DNA from: Escherichia coli
Lineage (GTDB): Bacteria > Pseudomonadota > Gammaproteobacteria > Enterobacterales > Enterobacteriaceae
Reading direction: 5' to 3' (one strand)
Assembly: GCF_041886205.1 (NCBI RefSeq)
Contig: NZ_CP169029.1
DNA length: 64,000 nucleotides
The notes below the pieces were generated by a model that saw nothing but the letters and a program-made list of their open reading frames with translations, was not told the origin of the DNA and did no database searches. This document shows positions 3,522 to 43,108 of the stretch, one piece after another. Made by a program: the position numbers and the translations under genes. The stretch's first letter is position 1. Each line of letters starts with the position of its first letter.

Positions 3522-5015
3522 TTAGCCCCAGGTTACCGCTTCCGGTTTATCACCTCTGGCTTTCATTAATGAATCATTATCAATATCGGCTTTATATTTT
3601 AAGAACTTACCATACATTTGTTTTTCAATGTCTGGATTTTTACCTATCTGATTAATAGTCTCAAAACGATCGGTTTTGAGGTTATATAGGTACTTTGGCT
3701 TATTGTTACGATCGATGATCATTTTCCAGTCACCATCACGTATCGCCCATTCGTCGGTTGGATCATCCTGGAATGGCATGTCAATTCCGAAGATTAATGG
3801 CTTTTCACGTTTTAGCGCTTTGTTCTCAAGGACAGGAACCAACGATTCGCCATCAAAAGTGCGGTCCGTCGGTAATTTGAAGTTCATCATTTTCGCCAGC
3901 GTAGGCATCCAGTCCAGACCATAAACTGGCGTATCTGAAACCATTCCCTTTGGAAGATGTTTACCGTATTTAATAATTGCCGGAACACGGATGCCGCCTT
4001 CCCAAAGATTATCCTTGCGACCACGTAATCCATCAGTTTCACCTGCCAAATTCAGTTCATAAACTTTGCGTGCTTCACGCGTTACTGGGCCGTTGTCACT
4101 GGTAAAAATTATGATGGTGTTATCTTCTTCACCCATCGCTTTAATTTTATCCAGCACTTTTCCAACCTGAGCATCCAGATAACTGATGTTGGCATAATAT
4201 TCTCCTGTACCACGCCAGGGTTTATCCGCCCAGTCGCCATAAAATAAATCAGGATGCTGCTTCTGATATTCGCTCATATATTGTGAGTACATGTCGAGGT
4301 ATTTTTTGGGCGAAGCCAGGGGACTATGTACTTCGGTAAAAGCGACATAAAGGAAGAAAGGCTTACTGTCCTTTTTGTTATCCAACCAGTTAACAACTTC
4401 CGAACTGACATACTCACCACTCATTTTATCGGAACGTGGCGTTGGTTGCCCGTTACGCAACCAACCCGTTGGATAGACCATGCCAAAACGGGGACGCTCC
4501 TTCGCATTATCCAGAGTAGCGTCGGTAACAAAACCCGCCGTATTAACCAGTGAGTAATCAAAGCCCATATCTTTTGCCTGCGGCTGATCGGTGCGATCGC
4601 CGCCTGCATTCAGATGCAGCTTACCCATCATGGCCGTGTCGTACCCTTGCGCTTTGAGTAGATTAGCAATCGTGAGTTCATTACGCCCTAATGCCACATC
4701 TTTTCCCGTTGGGATCCATGAGCGTATGCCAGTACGAAATGGCATCCGCCCTGTTAATAGTCCCGCCCGTGAAGGAGAACTTAAGGGGGCAGGTGCATAG
4801 TAGTCGGTAAATTTGACGCCTTCCCGGGCAAGCCTGTCTATATTGGGCGTTTTAACGATCTGATGTCCATATGTTGCCAAATCACCATACCCTAAATCAT
4901 CCGCCATAATGATGACTAAATTGGGTTGTTTAGTCTCGGCGGCTACGGCTGGATTAAAAGCATTCCCTGTGCAAACTGCAAGGCCGATCAAACTGGCCAT
5001 TAATGTTTTCTGCAT
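3522..5015 (-). CDS. Secreted sulfatase (arylsulfatase family), Ser-type active-site motif
   Basis: ORF track 3522..5051; ATG at 5015 with AGGA 6 nt upstream gives MQKTLMASLIGLAVCTGNAFNPAVAAE signal peptide; N-terminal DDLGYGD metal-binding motif and SSPSRAGLLTGR formylglycine signature with Ser in the modified position. Confidence 0.85.
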   Translation of the reverse strand: MQKTLMASLIGLAVCTGNAFNPAVAAETKQPNLVIIMADDLGYGDLATYGHQIVKTPNIDRLAREGVKFTDYYAPAPLSSPSRAGLLTGRMPFRTGIRSWIPTGKDVALGRNELTIANLLKAQGYDTAMMGKLHLNAGGDRTDQPQAKDMGFDYSLVNTAGFVTDATLDNAKERPRFGMVYPTGWLRNGQPTPRSDKMSGEYVSSEVVNWLDNKKDSKPFFLYVAFTEVHSPLASPKKYLDMYSQYMSEYQKQHPDLFYGDWADKPWRGTGEYYANISYLDAQVGKVLDKIKAMGEEDNTIIIFTSDNGPVTREARKVYELNLAGETDGLRGRKDNLWEGGIRVPAIIKYGKHLPKGMVSDTPVYGLDWMPTLAKMMNFKLPTDRTFDGESLVPVLENKALKREKPLIFGIDMPFQDDPTDEWAIRDGDWKMIIDRNNKPKYLYNLKTDRFETINQIGKNPDIEKQMYGKFLKYKADIDNDSLMKARGDKPEAVTWG

Positions 5016-5034
5016 AATTATTCCTTTATGAAAA

Positions 5035-5796
5035 TTAGAAATCATAACCAAGCATATAAATCATTTGATCGCCAAAACCATCGTAGCCTAACTTATTATC
5101 GAAATAACGCCACGTCACACTGGCTTTCCAGCGAGGACAGAACTTCCAGGCAACTGTTAAACCGCCATTTAGCCCATTCCGACCAAATTGTTGTTCCGCA
5201 TAGGCATCATTTCTGTCCAGTTCTATTTCATTCCAGTTAGATAAAACAAATTTTTCGTCAAATAACGTAAAAGGTAATACTGCTGTCCAACCAACAACAT
5301 AACCATTCCAGCCATTTGTTTGACCATATTTGGCTGAGACATAGTCTCCAGATTGATTATGTAATCCTATATACGGTTTAAAAAATCCCCACGAACCATT
5401 CCAGCCGAGGTAGCCCAAGCCATAAAACATATCAAGATCGTCACCCCATGAGTTATCCCATTGACCATAGATCTTGCCAAAGAAAGTCATATCGGAGTCA
5501 AAAAGTCTGACATGTGTCATAGCAGAAACGGTATGATTACGCCCCGCTACGGCATGGTTAAGCACATTGCTTTCATAAAATGAGTAAAACTCGGCTTCTT
5601 TAAAATTCACACCAAAGTCCGCAGTCACTTTCCATACTTCACCACGGTGAGTGTTAACGAAGCCACTATTCCAGTCAGCATAACCTGCATTTATTGAGCC
5701 AAAGGAACCTTTATATTCTAATGAAGAATATGCAGGAAGATGATAGATAATCGTTGTCAGGGCACACGCAATAAGAAGCCGTCTTTTGGCAGACAT
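5035..5796 (-). CDS. Tsx/OmpK-family outer-membrane channel (nucleoside-channel-like beta-barrel)
   Basis: 253-aa ORF with signal peptide MSAKRRLLIACALTTIIYHLPAYS, aromatic-rich alternating beta-strand pattern, C-terminal ...MLGYDF resembling the Tsx C-terminus; GGAGA RBS upstream of ATG at 5796. Confidence 0.75.
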   Translation of the reverse strand: MSAKRRLLIACALTTIIYHLPAYSSLEYKGSFGSINAGYADWNSGFVNTHRGEVWKVTADFGVNFKEAEFYSFYESNVLNHAVAGRNHTVSAMTHVRLFDSDMTFFGKIYGQWDNSWGDDLDMFYGLGYLGWNGSWGFFKPYIGLHNQSGDYVSAKYGQTNGWNGYVVGWTAVLPFTLFDEKFVLSNWNEIELDRNDAYAEQQFGRNGLNGGLTVAWKFCPRWKASVTWRYFDNKLGYDGFGDQMIYMLGYDF

Positions 5797-9231: not shown

Positions 9232-11148
9232 TTATTTTTTGTCTTTGACTTCTTCAAATTCAGCGTCGACAACATCGTCATCTTTCGCGTTGTTTGCAGA
9301 AGCATCAGCACCGGCAGTCTGCTGCTGGGCATGTTGCTGCTGGGCGATTTCCATCAGTTTCTGGGAAACCTGTGCCAGTTCCTGCATTTTCGCTTCGATA
9401 GCGGCTTTGTCTTCACCTTTCAGAGCAGTTTCCAGTGCAGTCAGCGCAGACTCGATAGCAGTTTTGTCGTCAGCCGGCAGTTTGTCGCCTGCTTCTTCAA
9501 CCTGCTTACGGGTGCTGTGCAGCAGATGGTCGCCCTGGTTGCGAGTCTGTACCAGCTCTTCAAACTTACGGTCAGCTTCGGCGTTAGCTTCTGCGTCGCG
9601 TACCATTTTCTGGATTTCATCTTCGTTCAGACCAGAAGACGCCTTGATGGTGATCTTCTGCTCTTTACCGCTGTTTTTATCTTTCGCGGAAACGTGCAGG
9701 ATACCGTCAGCATCGATATCGAAGGTAACTTCGATCTGCGGCATGCCGCGCGGTGCCGGGTTGATACCATCCAGGTTGAACTGACCCAGAGATTTGTTAT
9801 CAGCCGCACGTTTACGTTCACCCTGCAGCACATGGATGGTTACCGCAGACTGGTTGTCTTCAGCGGTAGAGAACACCTGGCTGTGCTTGGTCGGGATAGT
9901 GGTGTTTTTCGCGATCAGCGTCGTCATCACACCGCCCATGGTTTCGATACCCAGAGACAGAGGGGTAACGTCCAGCAGCAGTACGTCTTTTACGTCACCA
10001 GTCAGAACACCACCCTGAACAGCAGCACCGATTGCTACAGCTTCGTCCGGGTTAACGTCTTTACGCGGCTCTTTACCAAAGAACTCAGCAACTTTCTTCT
10101 GAACCATTGGCATACGAGTCTGACCACCCACGAGGATAACGTCGTCGATATCAGATACGGACAGGCCAGCGTCCTGCAGTGCAACTTTCAGCGGCTCAAT
10201 GGAACGGTTTACCAGATCTTCAACCAGGCTTTCCAGTTTCGCACGAGTCACTTTGATGTTCATGTGTTTCGGACCGGTCGCGTCTGCAGTGATGTACGGC
10301 AGGTTAACGTCGGTCTGCTGAGCGGAAGACAGCTCGATTTTCGCTTTTTCTGCCGCTTCTTTCAGGCGCTGCATTGCCAGCGGATCGTTGCGCAGGTCAA
10401 TGCCCTGATCTTTCTTGAATTCTTCAACCAGGTAGTTGATCAGACGGCTGTCGAAGTCTTCACCACCCAGGTGGGTATCACCGTTGGTTGCCAGAACTTC
10501 GAAGGTTTTTTCGCCGTCAACTTCGTCGATTTCGATAATAGAAATATCGAAAGTACCACCACCCAGGTCATAAACCGCGATAGTACGGTTGCCAGTACCT
10601 TTGTCCAGACCGTAAGCCAGCGCAGCTGCGGTTGGTTCGTTAATGATACGTTTTACTTCCAGACCAGCGATACGGCCTGCGTCTTTCGTTGCCTGACGCT
10701 GAGCATCGTTAAAGTATGCCGGTACGGTGATAACAGCTTCAGTTACCGGTTCACCCAGGTAATCTTCAGCGGTTTTCTTCATTTTTTTCAGCACTTCAGC
10801 AGAGATCTGCGGCGGTGCCATTTTCTGGCCTTTAACTTCGACCCAAGCGTCGCCGTTATCAGCAGCAATAATTTTGAACGGCATGATGGAAACATCACGC
10901 TGTACTTCTTCGTCCTGGAAGCGGCGGCCAATCAGGCGTTTAATCGCAAACAGGGTGTTTTGCGGGTTCGTCACTGCCTGACGTTTAGCCGGCTGACCAA
11001 CCAGAGTTTCACCATCCTGGGTATAGGCAATGATAGAAGGCGTGGTGCGATCGCCTTCGGCGTTCTCCAGCACGCGAGGAGTGGTGCCATCCATAATCGC
11101 TACACAAGAGTTGGTAGTACCCAGGTCGATACCAATTATTTTACCCAT
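9232..11148 (-). CDS. dnaK: Chaperone DnaK (Hsp70)
   Basis: 638-aa [43 protein letters not shown]... Confidence 0.98.
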
Positions 11149-40916: not shown

Positions 40917-41933
40917 ATGTCCACATTACGCCTGCTCATCTCTGACTCTTACGACCCGTGGTTTAACCTGGCGGTGGAGGAGTGTATTTTTCGCCAGATG
41001 CCCGCCACGCAGCGCGTTCTGTTTCTCTGGCGCAATGCCGACACGGTAGTGATTGGTCGCGCGCAGAACCCGTGGAAAGAGTGTAATACCCGGCGGATGG
41101 AAGAAGATAACGTCCGCATGGCGCGGCGCAGTAGCGGTGGCGGCGCGGTGTTCCACGATCTCGGCAATACCTGCTTTACCTTTATGGCTGGCAAGCCGGA
41201 GTACGATAAAACCATCTCCACGTCGATTGTGCTCAATGCGCTGAACGCGCTTGGCGTCAGCGCCGAAGCGTCCGGACGTAACGATCTGGTGGTGAAAACC
41301 GTCGAAGGCGACCGCAAAGTCTCAGGCTCGGCCTATCGCGAAACCAAAGATCGTGGCTTCCACCACGGCACTTTGCTGCTCAATGCCGACCTTAGCCGCC
41401 TGGCAAACTATCTCAATCCGGATAAAAAGAAACTGGCGGCGAAAGGCATTACGTCGGTACGTTCCCGCGTGACCAACCTCACCGAGCTGTTGCCGGGGAT
41501 CACCCATGAGCAGGTTTGCGAGGCCATAACCGAGGCCTTTTTCGCTCATTATGGCGAGCGTGTAGAAGCGGAAATCATCTCCCCGGACAAAACGCCAGAC
41601 TTGCCGAACTTCGCCGAAACCTTTGCCCGCCAGAGTAGCTGGGAATGGAACTTCGGTCAGGCTCCGGCATTCTCGCATCTGCTGGATGAACGCTTTACCT
41701 GGGGCGGCGTGGAACTGCATTTCGACGTTGAAAAAGGCCATATCACCCGCGCCCAGGTGTTTACCGATAGCCTCAACCCCGCGCCGCTGGAAGCCCTCGC
41801 CGGACGACTGCAAGGCTGCCTGTACCGCGCAGATATGCTGCAACAAGAGTGCGAAGCGCTGTTGGTTGACTTCCCGGAACAGGAAAAAGAGCTACGGGAG
41901 TTGTCGACGTGGATAGCGGGGGCGGTGCGGTAA
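40917..41933 (+). CDS. lplA: Lipoate-protein ligase A
   Basis: 338-aa [64 protein letters not shown]... Confidence 0.97.
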
Positions 41934-41964
41934 CTCGCTGATTAAAATATCCAAGGAAGGAAAT

Positions 41965-42228
41965 ATGATCGATCTGGAGAACCAGGAACGGGAGATTATC
42001 AATTTAATGTTCAGCCAGGGTATATCCTGGCTAGCCGCCGTGCGTATCAGGCATAAATTATCGCTTGCTGAAGTAAGTAAAATGTTAGGTATCTCGATTA
42101 ATTCTCTAAAACAGATCGAAAAGACGGAACGGCTTAGCTCAAACATCAAAAGCAAAATGGCAGAAATTTATGGTTGTCCATCAGAGTTGCTGATATGCCC
42201 TTCCTGGATGACGGCTGAACATAAATGA
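41965..42228 (+). CDS. Small XRE-like helix-turn-helix protein occupying the position of yjjJ (possibly a remnant or replacement gene)
   Basis: 87-aa MIDLENQEREIINLMFSQGISWLAAVRIRHKLSLAEVSKMLGISINSLKQIEKTERL...; AGGAAGG RBS upstream; HTH-like LSLAEVSKMLGISINSLKQIE. Confidence 0.5.
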   Translation: MIDLENQEREIINLMFSQGISWLAAVRIRHKLSLAEVSKMLGISINSLKQIEKTERLSSNIKSKMAEIYGCPSELLICPSWMTAEHK

Positions 42229-42326
42229 ATAGATTCGTGAATAGATACTTGAATGGATTTTATTTTCTATCCATATGAAAAATAATAGTAAATCTATAAA
42301 TCAGTTGCTATTGATGAATAGATACT
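42226..42326. repeat. Three direct copies of TGAATAGAT(ACT) in the AT-rich spacer before deoD
   Basis: tgaatagat at 42226-42234, tgaatagatact at 42238-42249 and 42315-42326. Confidence 0.6.
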
Positions 42327-42356
42327 AAAAAGCCGGAGCAGTCTCCCACTCCGGCT
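42322..42356 (-). terminator. Intrinsic terminator after deoD
   Basis: gccggag-cagtctcccact-ctccggc hairpin followed by TTTTT on the minus strand, about 30 nt past the deoD stop. Confidence 0.8.
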
Positions 42357-42388
42357 TCACACGACAATCGCCTTTCAGCGAAACACAA

Positions 42389-43108
42389 TTACTCTTTATC
42401 GCCCAGCAGAACGGATTCCAGTGCGATTTTGATCATGTCGTTGAAGGTGGTCTGACGCTCAGCGGCAGTGGTCTGCTCGTGAGTGCGGATGTGGTCAGAC
42501 ACGGTACAGATGGTCAGGGCTTTCGCGCCAAATTCTGCAGCGACGCCGTAGATACCAGCCGCTTCCATTTCCACGCCGAGGATGCCGTATTTTTCCATCA
42601 CGTCGAACATTTCGCCGTCCGGAGAGTAGAACAGGTCAGCGGAGAACAGGTTACCCACGCGAGCATCAACGCCCAGTGCTTTAGCCGCGTCTACCGCGTT
42701 ACGCACCATGTCAAAGTCAGCGATAGCGGCAAAGTCATGGTCTTTAAAACGGATGCGGTTAACTTTGGAATCGGTGCAGGCACCCATACCGATAACGACG
42801 TCGCGTAGTTTTACGTGCGGCAGAACTGCGCCACAGGAACCCACGCGGATAATTTTCTTCACGCCGAAATCGGTGATCAGTTCTTTGGTGTAGATGGAGC
42901 AGGACGGGATACCCATACCGTGACCCATTACGGAAATTTTGCGGCCTTTGTAAGTACCGGTGAAGCCCAGCATACCGCGAACGTTGTTCACTTCACGGGC
43001 ATCTTCAAGGAAAGTTTCAGCAATATACTTCGCACGCAGCGGGTCGCCTGGCATCAAAACTACGTCAGCGAAATCGCCCATTTCTGCATTAATGTGTGGG
43101 GTAGCCAT
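42389..43108 (-). CDS. deoD: Purine nucleoside phosphorylase DeoD
   Basis: [57 protein letters not shown]...; track ORF 42389..43165 has a 19-codon extension. Confidence 0.97.

Follow-up and report, generated by a model that had tools for sequence, protein, structure and literature searches.

An 87-residue XRE-type helix-turn-helix gene takes the place of hipH between lplA and deoD in Escherichia coli and shares with it a candidate operator array

The slot between lplA and deoD in the 64-kb window (the whole 64,000-nucleotide stretch of E. coli DNA that was analyzed) holds a gene for an 87-residue XRE/Cro-type helix-turn-helix (HTH) protein, hereafter HTH87, which, judging from sequence comparisons, is a distinct cassette swapping exactly for the coding sequence of hipH (yjjJ) and not a shrunken hipH. 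The gene is common, already annotated (RefSeq "helix-turn-helix domain-containing protein", WP_000566141.1), uncharacterized and allelic to hipH, and the HTH87/hipH state varies between strains as an ordinary polymorphism, made mildly interesting by its regulatory side. The points of modest interest are the dimorphism, which extends across genera, and a shared, previously undescribed candidate HipH operator. We consider it rather probable that HTH87 and HipH are mutually exclusive cassettes at one operator-like module, and that HTH87, in function presumably a small repressor, has as its likeliest target the array of 12-bp TGAATAGAT units together with the adjoining AT-rich core.

In the window, lplA (lipoate-protein ligase A, 338 aa; 40917-41933, plus strand), delineated from the list of open reading frames (ORFs) and the annotation of the identical locus of E. 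coli C, converges on deoD (purine nucleoside phosphorylase, 239 aa; 42389-43108, minus strand), which was delineated from the ORF list, annotation and tblastn. The 455 bp between them (41934-42388), a spacing already given in the original prediction, open with a 31-bp gap that contains no terminator, after which HTH87 (41965-42228, plus strand) starts on the lplA strand, with a Shine-Dalgarno-like AAGGAAGGA (41953-41961, plus strand; direct sequence reading) lying 3 nt 5′ of its ATG. The spacer 3′ of HTH87 has a GC content of 35% and comprises three tandem 12-bp units, TGAATAGATtcg, TGAATAGATact and TGAATgGATttt (42226-42261, plus strand; unit alignment and logo), an AT-rich core, presumed to be the former hipH promoter region (42262-42314, minus strand; 14 loci aligned in register and conservation among HTH87 loci), and a distal unit TGAATAGATACT (42315-42326, plus strand; unit alignment). 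Directly after the distal unit lies the intrinsic terminator of deoD (42327-42358, minus strand), a strong hairpin of -24.1 kcal/mol by RNAfold followed by U5 on the minus strand, and both the AT-rich spacer and the terminator are as had been foreseen. The consensus terminator scan missed this real terminator. The consensus promoter scan returned a single plus-strand site, at chance level and overlapping the HTH87 start, and found no sigma-70 site in the AT-rich core, while a search of the spacer against Rfam at E ≤ 1 found no known RNA. An antisense 87-aa ORF (41892-42155) was rejected since its frame is not conserved in other genera (46-51 aa at most).

In MG1655 the slot between deoD and lplA holds hipH, the gene for the 443-aa HipA-like kinase that the original prediction had placed there and found absent here, and MG1655 does not have the 455-bp arrangement. 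A blastn comparison of the window with MG1655 yields two collinear blocks of homology, one reaching up to 41932 (the lplA stop) and the other resuming at 42220, where "CAT" is the complement of the hipH ATG. A cassette-specific segment of 287 bp (41933-42219) hence stands for the ~1,330 bp of the hipH coding sequence, and the locus is indeed shorter, as had been supposed, but by ~1,043 bp and so by a little less than the suggested 1.25 kb. The segment has a GC content of 41.5% as against 57.7% for lplA, and the HTH87 gene is AT-rich in every host (41-44% GC), with lplA at 57% and hipH host-like at 54%. The K-12 hipH locus, which encodes a monocistronic HipA-family kinase toxin with an N-terminal HTH, uses the same lplA-deoD slot and the same non-coding module of TGAATAGAT units, AT-rich core and deoD terminator as the HTH87 locus, and each of the two cargos encodes an HTH. 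The two loci differ in the gene, its size (443 versus 87 aa), its HTH class and its strand, hipH lying on the deoD strand and HTH87 on the opposite, lplA strand; a kinase domain is missing from HTH87, and homology to HipH could not be detected. The last four lplA codons read GCG GTG CGG TAA in the window and GCT GTA AGG TAG in MG1655 (41921-41933), differing at four synonymous or stop positions, and the haplotype boundary is therefore placed slightly inside the lplA 3′ end.

The survey of the locus across strains that had been proposed was carried out on 5,426 complete RefSeq E. coli genomes, a set biased to laboratory K-12, ST131 and O157, in which counts are not population frequencies. The 287-bp HTH segment is present in 4,073 of these genomes (~75%) and hipH in 1,348 (~25%), making the K-12 state the minority; any match to the 455-bp locus occurs in 5,421, which is exactly the sum of the two, and the cassettes are therefore mutually exclusive. 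The window locus is 100% identical to those of E. coli C, WG5, ST540 and others. K-12 carries hipH and CFT073 carries hipH together with an IS200C in the spacer, while HTH87 is intact in E. coli C and IAI39, is represented by the intact codon-50 33-mer in the O157:H7 strain PV15-279, and has an internal stop in IAI1. We take K-12 and E. coli C to belong to phylogroup A, CFT073 to B2, IAI39 to F and IAI1 to B1; the presence of both alleles inside phylogroup A points to exchange by homologous recombination, a process that also fits the patchy divergence seen in the ytjB-lplA and deoD flanks when the window is compared with MG1655. Work on HipH/YjjJ as a toxin linked to persistence and biofilms has been confined almost entirely to K-12 and a single UPEC strain, and the lack of hipH from about three quarters of the surveyed complete genomes limits the generalization of HipH phenotypes. 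The hipH-less genomes carry instead an uncharacterized small HTH gene, or its pseudogene, beside an apparent hipH operator.

The stop in IAI1 is Q50* (CAG to TAG at nucleotide 148 of the ORF; extracted-locus 5490-5753), which falls inside the predicted recognition helix. The corresponding polymorphic base, identified from the IAI1 pseudogene and allele-specific 33-mers, lies at 42112 on the plus strand in the window, where the codon is CAG and the gene intact. The codon-50 33-mers count 2,035 genomes with CAG and 1,691 with TAG, so that an inactivated, Q50* copy is found in ~31% of complete E. coli genomes (1,691 of 5,426, among the 4,073 with the HTH allele); carriers include IAI1 and O111:H8, and RefSeq flags the copy as an 'internal stop' pseudogene. 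HTH87 is dispensable, given that the Q50* allele has become fixed across much of the species. Three Q50*-type copies of the HTH segment are on plasmid-classed records and may be captured chromosomal segments or misassigned replicons.

Scanning of the lplA loci of 80 enterobacterial species by tblastn revealed an empty lplA-deoD junction of 43-105 bp in most genera, including Salmonella, most Citrobacter, Klebsiella and Enterobacter. hipH is found at the same junction and in the same orientation in E. albertii (95% amino acid identity), a Pseudocitrobacter MAG (69%), Kosakonia pseudosacchari (62%), Leclercia sp. (62%), Silvania hatchlandensis (61%) and Citrobacter sp. Cu233 (60%), and hipH remnants in Phytobacter diazotrophicus and Kosakonia sp. 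S29. HTH87, again at the same junction and in the same orientation, is found in a divergent E. coli-like lineage (85%), Superficieibacter sp. (~52%) and the Enterobacteriaceae MAG UBA3516 (~48%), with further copies from E. marmotae, Shigella flexneri and Escherichia sp. E1130 in protein databases. Both cassettes occur in several genera and are therefore older than E. coli, the slot having been repeatedly lost or exchanged. The lplA-deoD junction is a general hotspot for variation. The empty junction of E. whittamii keeps "TTGATGAAT|TAAAAAGCCGGAG" (extracted-locus 10165-10240), with TTGATGAAT fused to an E. coli-type deoD terminator, and from its sequence looks like a secondary deletion of the whole module with the distal unit clipped. 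Tandem REP-like/palindromic repeats in 3-4 copies are present in the lplA-deoD spacers of Raoultella planticola and Enterobacter sp. kpr-6, and several other species have inserts of 0.75-6 kb at the junction.

The original prediction of an 87-aa ORF with an XRE-like HTH and a good ribosome-binding site is borne out, and of the two identities that it offered for the ORF, a free-standing XRE-type HTH gene is the one supported. HTH87 matches the Pfam family HTH_3 (PF01381) over residues 23-75 (i-Evalue 6.4e-6), with further matches to HTH_19, HTH_25 and HTH_31, and the PADLOC model HTH_VI (2.4e-6); membership of a defense system or phage was rejected, as generic HTH models alone matched. The AlphaFold2 model (pLDDT 89.6, pTM 0.80) is all-helical with seven short helices, among them those at residues 22-29, 34-41, 45-54 and 59-69. 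Foldseek searches with the model against the PDB returned XRE/Cro-type repressors only (CylR2, C.BclI, the N-domain of CapH, SinR, P22 c2 and DdrO), with TM scores of 0.6-0.77 (target-normalized) and RMSDs of 1.4-2.1 Å over 53-60 residues. The five-helix HTH fold of CylR2, the controller C-proteins of restriction-modification systems, the SinR N-domain, P22 c2 and CapH is also that of the HTH87 model, and together with the profile match it places HTH87, as modeled, among the XRE/Cro-C1-type HTH domains. These small repressors lack the additional helix at the N-terminus of HTH87 (residues 4-18) and its short helical tail at the C-terminus, and are only 16-30% identical to it in sequence; a profile search of the PDB by sequence matched CylR2 alone, and weakly, and did not match HipB.

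Orthologs of HTH87 are intact at 86-87 aa with 48-85% identity and share the blocks SWLAAVRI, KML.I, IEK and MAEIY.C...LL..P.WM, and 31 columns are invariant across 10 HTH87 sequences. The dN/dS ratio lies at 0.15-0.31 in comparisons across genera and reaches 0.54 in the closest pair, as compared to ~0.04 for lplA. On this sequence evidence HTH87 is a real gene under purifying selection. A profile search of 1.84 billion representatives retrieved two full-length HTH87 clusters at 50% identity only, and the family is therefore tiny and enterobacterial. There is a small chance that the gene is instead a passenger ORF that has no function or is decaying, and that the array is no more than the slowly eroding remains of an earlier hipH promoter, as could be read from the 1,691 Q50* copies among 4,073 HTH-allele genomes, the many truncated or frameshifted variants in protein databases, the AT-rich gene, the mere two clusters and the degenerate module remnants in Kosakonia and Phytobacter. 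Such a passenger would not be expected to keep an intact frame of the same length at 48-54% identity and a dN/dS of ~0.2 across genera, to retain the invariant columns, or to yield a confident, well-packed model, nor would an eroding relic be expected to have its units conserved above background in hipH-less loci, as described below.

The non-coding module runs in the order three tandem 12-bp TGAATAGAT units, AT-rich core, distal unit and deoD terminator, and in the window, which thereby belongs to what we define in the present study as the hipH module (slot plus TGAATAGAT array), the units start at 42226, 42238, 42250 and 42315. All 13 loci with hipH, HTH87 or a hipH remnant, from at least 10 species, have the array, and none of ~60 other junctions does. 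In a logo of 42 units from 11 loci, conservation is at least 86% at each of positions 1-9, and positions 10-12 are variable. In hipH alleles, including that of MG1655, the hipH ATG is found on the other strand at a distance of 3 nt from unit 1, whereas in HTH87 alleles the stop codon TGA forms the first three bases of unit 1; the junction of stop codon and unit 1 does not differ between E. coli, Superficieibacter and UBA3516, suggesting that it arose once. Among hipH-less HTH87 loci, 33 of 36 unit positions are conserved as compared to 39 of 66 in the rest of the spacer (p = 5e-4), and a second such comparison gave 26/27 versus 42/63 (p = 0.003). The third, between the window and locus L018, did not show an excess of unit conservation (p = 0.51) because a unit had been deleted. 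Within the core, a semi-conserved TGAAAAATAATAGTAAAT (42276-42293) offers a -10-like TATTAT on the hipH strand; across loci the core has a semi-conserved element TGAAA(A/T)GTA(A/T)AG, -10-like on that strand. From these sequence features the core would hold the hipH promoter, an assignment kept conditional by the empty consensus promoter scan.

A scan of viral contigs for two tandem units retrieved 89 stretches. Four of these encode a full-length homolog that is only 35% identical to HipH; three units are located 21 nt upstream of its ATG, and its recognition helix reads SQPTISR, as compared to SQATFSR in E. coli (signature SQ(A/P)T(F/I)SR). The array accompanies even so distant a homolog and is therefore probably a HipH operator; going by sequence, it would be an operator of the HipH family, probably bound by HipH's own N-terminal HTH. 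No ORF resembling HipH-N or HTH87 accompanies the other 85 stretches, which are unrelated tandem 12-mers or chance matches, and the idea that TGAATAGAT arrays are a general phage or mobile-element feature for HTH87-like or HipH-N-like proteins was rejected. The four contigs with the HipH homolog (L097, L106, L135 and L178 of IMG/VR) are prophage-like, come from isolate genomes and have a GC content of 0.45-0.48. Unrelated IMG/VR contigs (L110-L112, L148, L172, L182 and others) carry tandem TGAATAGATAAA in 6-8 copies or TGAATAGATAAG in three, directly before a ribosome-binding site and ATG, and have no HipH-like or HTH87-like ORF nearby. The TGAATAGAT direct repeats, conserved down to 35% HipH identity, represent a candidate HipH operator motif new to the literature searched: they match no known regulator motif and the motif is not described there, nor are the yjjJ dimorphism and the 87-aa gene (sought by guessed O157 locus tags and WP accessions). 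Published work on hipH, which places c-di-GMP-dependent control of the gene at its promoter region, describes neither the repeats nor the alternative allele (PMC11452175).

We propose that HTH87 would be co-transcribed with lplA, as suggested by the 31-bp gap, the lack of a terminator and the absence of room for a promoter of its own. The array would be the HipH-family operator, bound by the N-terminal winged HTH of HipH, and HTH87 would be a small repressor whose most plausible target is the retained array with its core. The array (42226-42326) is the best candidate, and the predicted site, for sequence-specific DNA binding by HTH87 because it is the only conserved non-coding element nearby, because the stop-codon/unit-1 junction is identical in three lineages and because the units outconserve the rest of the spacer in hipH-less loci. 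More speculatively, HTH87 may silence the orphan hipH promoter, which would otherwise drive antisense transcription into HTH87 and lplA. Against a repressor acting here stand the frequent loss of HTH87 (Q50* in 1,691 genomes, and frameshifts) from loci that keep the array, the core without a consensus sigma-70 site, and the one null result among three comparisons of unit conservation. The candidate sites are also direct repeats and not palindromes, unlike the usual sites of XRE dimers, which usually bind palindromes; SinR, which is among the Foldseek matches, does bind tandem repeats. Two alleles on one regulatory module offer a simple natural system for studying the swap of a toxin gene for a regulator.

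That HTH87 is a trans-acting regulator of genes elsewhere, the TGAATAGAT array being bound by a host factor or otherwise independent of HTH87, is unlikely in our view. The array is equally conserved with either cargo and the c-di-GMP control at the hipH promoter region implies some host input (PMC11452175), as this reading would have it. Yet the array matches no known regulator motif and is absent from the literature searched, and clustered TGAATAGAT sites are found nowhere else in the 64-kb window: its 13 near-matches compare with 11.5 expected, without overall enrichment, and four of the 13 are clustered here on one strand, forming the only such cluster.

A stronger version of the proposal, in which HTH87 and HipH are functionally linked, idiomorph-like alleles on one TGAATAGAT operator with HTH87 as an antitoxin-like guard, is distinctly unlikely. 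In that case the slot would be occupied by a kinase toxin that regulates itself or else by a free-standing repressor of the toxin promoter, HTH87 would silence hipH promoters, whether resident relics or incoming, and balancing selection, not drift, would keep up the dimorphism across Enterobacteriaceae.

The nearest relatives outside the family are HTH proteins of 95-133 aa (E = 3e-10 to 6e-6), whose C-terminal ~70 residues align to HTH87 residues 9-76 (VSLLAAWRIYRGLSQ..LGISQSA.SQIEK..LA.IY.C.PEQL). Three of the six relatives examined are encoded directly downstream of a ParE_toxin (PF05016) gene in toxin-first order and the other three are solitary. Sequence comparison thus relates HTH87 to a ParE/RelE-linked antitoxin family, and specifically to its DNA-binding half. 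The XRE-HTH members of that family (toxin-first, HigBA-like order; also phrog_7241) show clear profile homology to residues 9-76 and share with HTH87 the block (V/I)S(L/W)LAA(W/V)RI...LGIS...QIEK...(L/M)A.IY.C.P(E)(Q/L)L. HTH87 differs from these antitoxins in lacking their N-terminal extension (45-60 aa) and an adjacent toxin gene, its neighbors being lplA on the same strand and the convergent deoD, and in its housekeeping context and probable co-transcription with lplA. It is part of no operon with a cognate toxin, has no toxin-neutralizing region besides the HTH and fits no curated antitoxin family model, with NCBIfam cut-offs left unreached for PezA (14.2 bits versus 290) and NadS (16.5 versus 60), and a HigA score of 18.1 versus 47.7 for P0082. 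HipB, the antitoxin of HipA, resembles HTH87 in size (88 aa) and in its XRE-type HTH but has no specific sequence relationship with it, and HTH87 does not lie in a kinase operon; homology to HipB was rejected, as neither the NCBIfam HipB model nor the PDB sequence search gave a match.

The original prediction had offered an orphaned antitoxin-like module as one possibility, and 'antitoxin-like' is fair for ancestry, because the closest outside relatives are HTH domains of antitoxins, while 'orphaned antitoxin' describes ancestry at most, given that no cognate toxin gene is adjacent. It is very unlikely that HTH87 functions as an orphan antitoxin against a toxin elsewhere, be it of ParE/RelE type or a horizontally arriving HipA/HipH-type kinase. 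Kinship with HTH proteins half of which sit beside a ParE_toxin gene would agree with such a role, as would the reported ability of HipB to rescue YjjJ toxicity (PMC9948734). The role is opposed by the neighboring genes, the missing extension, the NCBIfam scores and the failure of the PDB profile search to match HipB, and also by the fact that hipH and HTH87 never occur together in one genome.

Derivation of HTH87 from hipH as a truncated or rearranged remnant, for example an N-terminal HTH left or inverted after deletion of the kinase, is effectively refuted by these sequence comparisons: an HTH in both proteins, the exact position of the cassette in place of the hipH coding sequence and the retention in E. 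coli of CAT, the complement of the hipH ATG, as HTH87 codon 86 are outweighed by the opposite strand, the lack of specific similarity to HipH in BLASTP (E = 0.2 over 6 residues), a generic 23-column HTH overlap as the only HHalign result with the HipH N-terminal domain (probability 10%), the absence of blastn similarity between the 287-bp segment and hipH, and HTH classes that appear to differ, the HipH N-terminus looking from its sequence like a winged helix and HTH87 like an XRE five-helix bundle. With no similarity to HipH/YjjJ on the hipH strand, HTH87 is neither HipH nor its relic. The description of the locus as 'reduced' in the original prediction accordingly does not stand, the more so as the exactly swapped cassette is the majority state in the surveyed genomes and is found in other genera. 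A genuine truncation has a different appearance, as seen in strain WB61, which retains a ~137-bp hipH 5′ remnant (extracted-locus 2498-2689). The WB61 remnant overlaps the lplA end and is annotated as a partial 'transcriptional regulator' pseudogene. In the hipH allele of CFT073 (UPEC), the IS200C has the deoD terminator on one side and the distal TGAATAGAT unit on the other (extracted-locus 4273-5150); from this position, upstream of the presumed promoter of hipH, it might change hipH expression.
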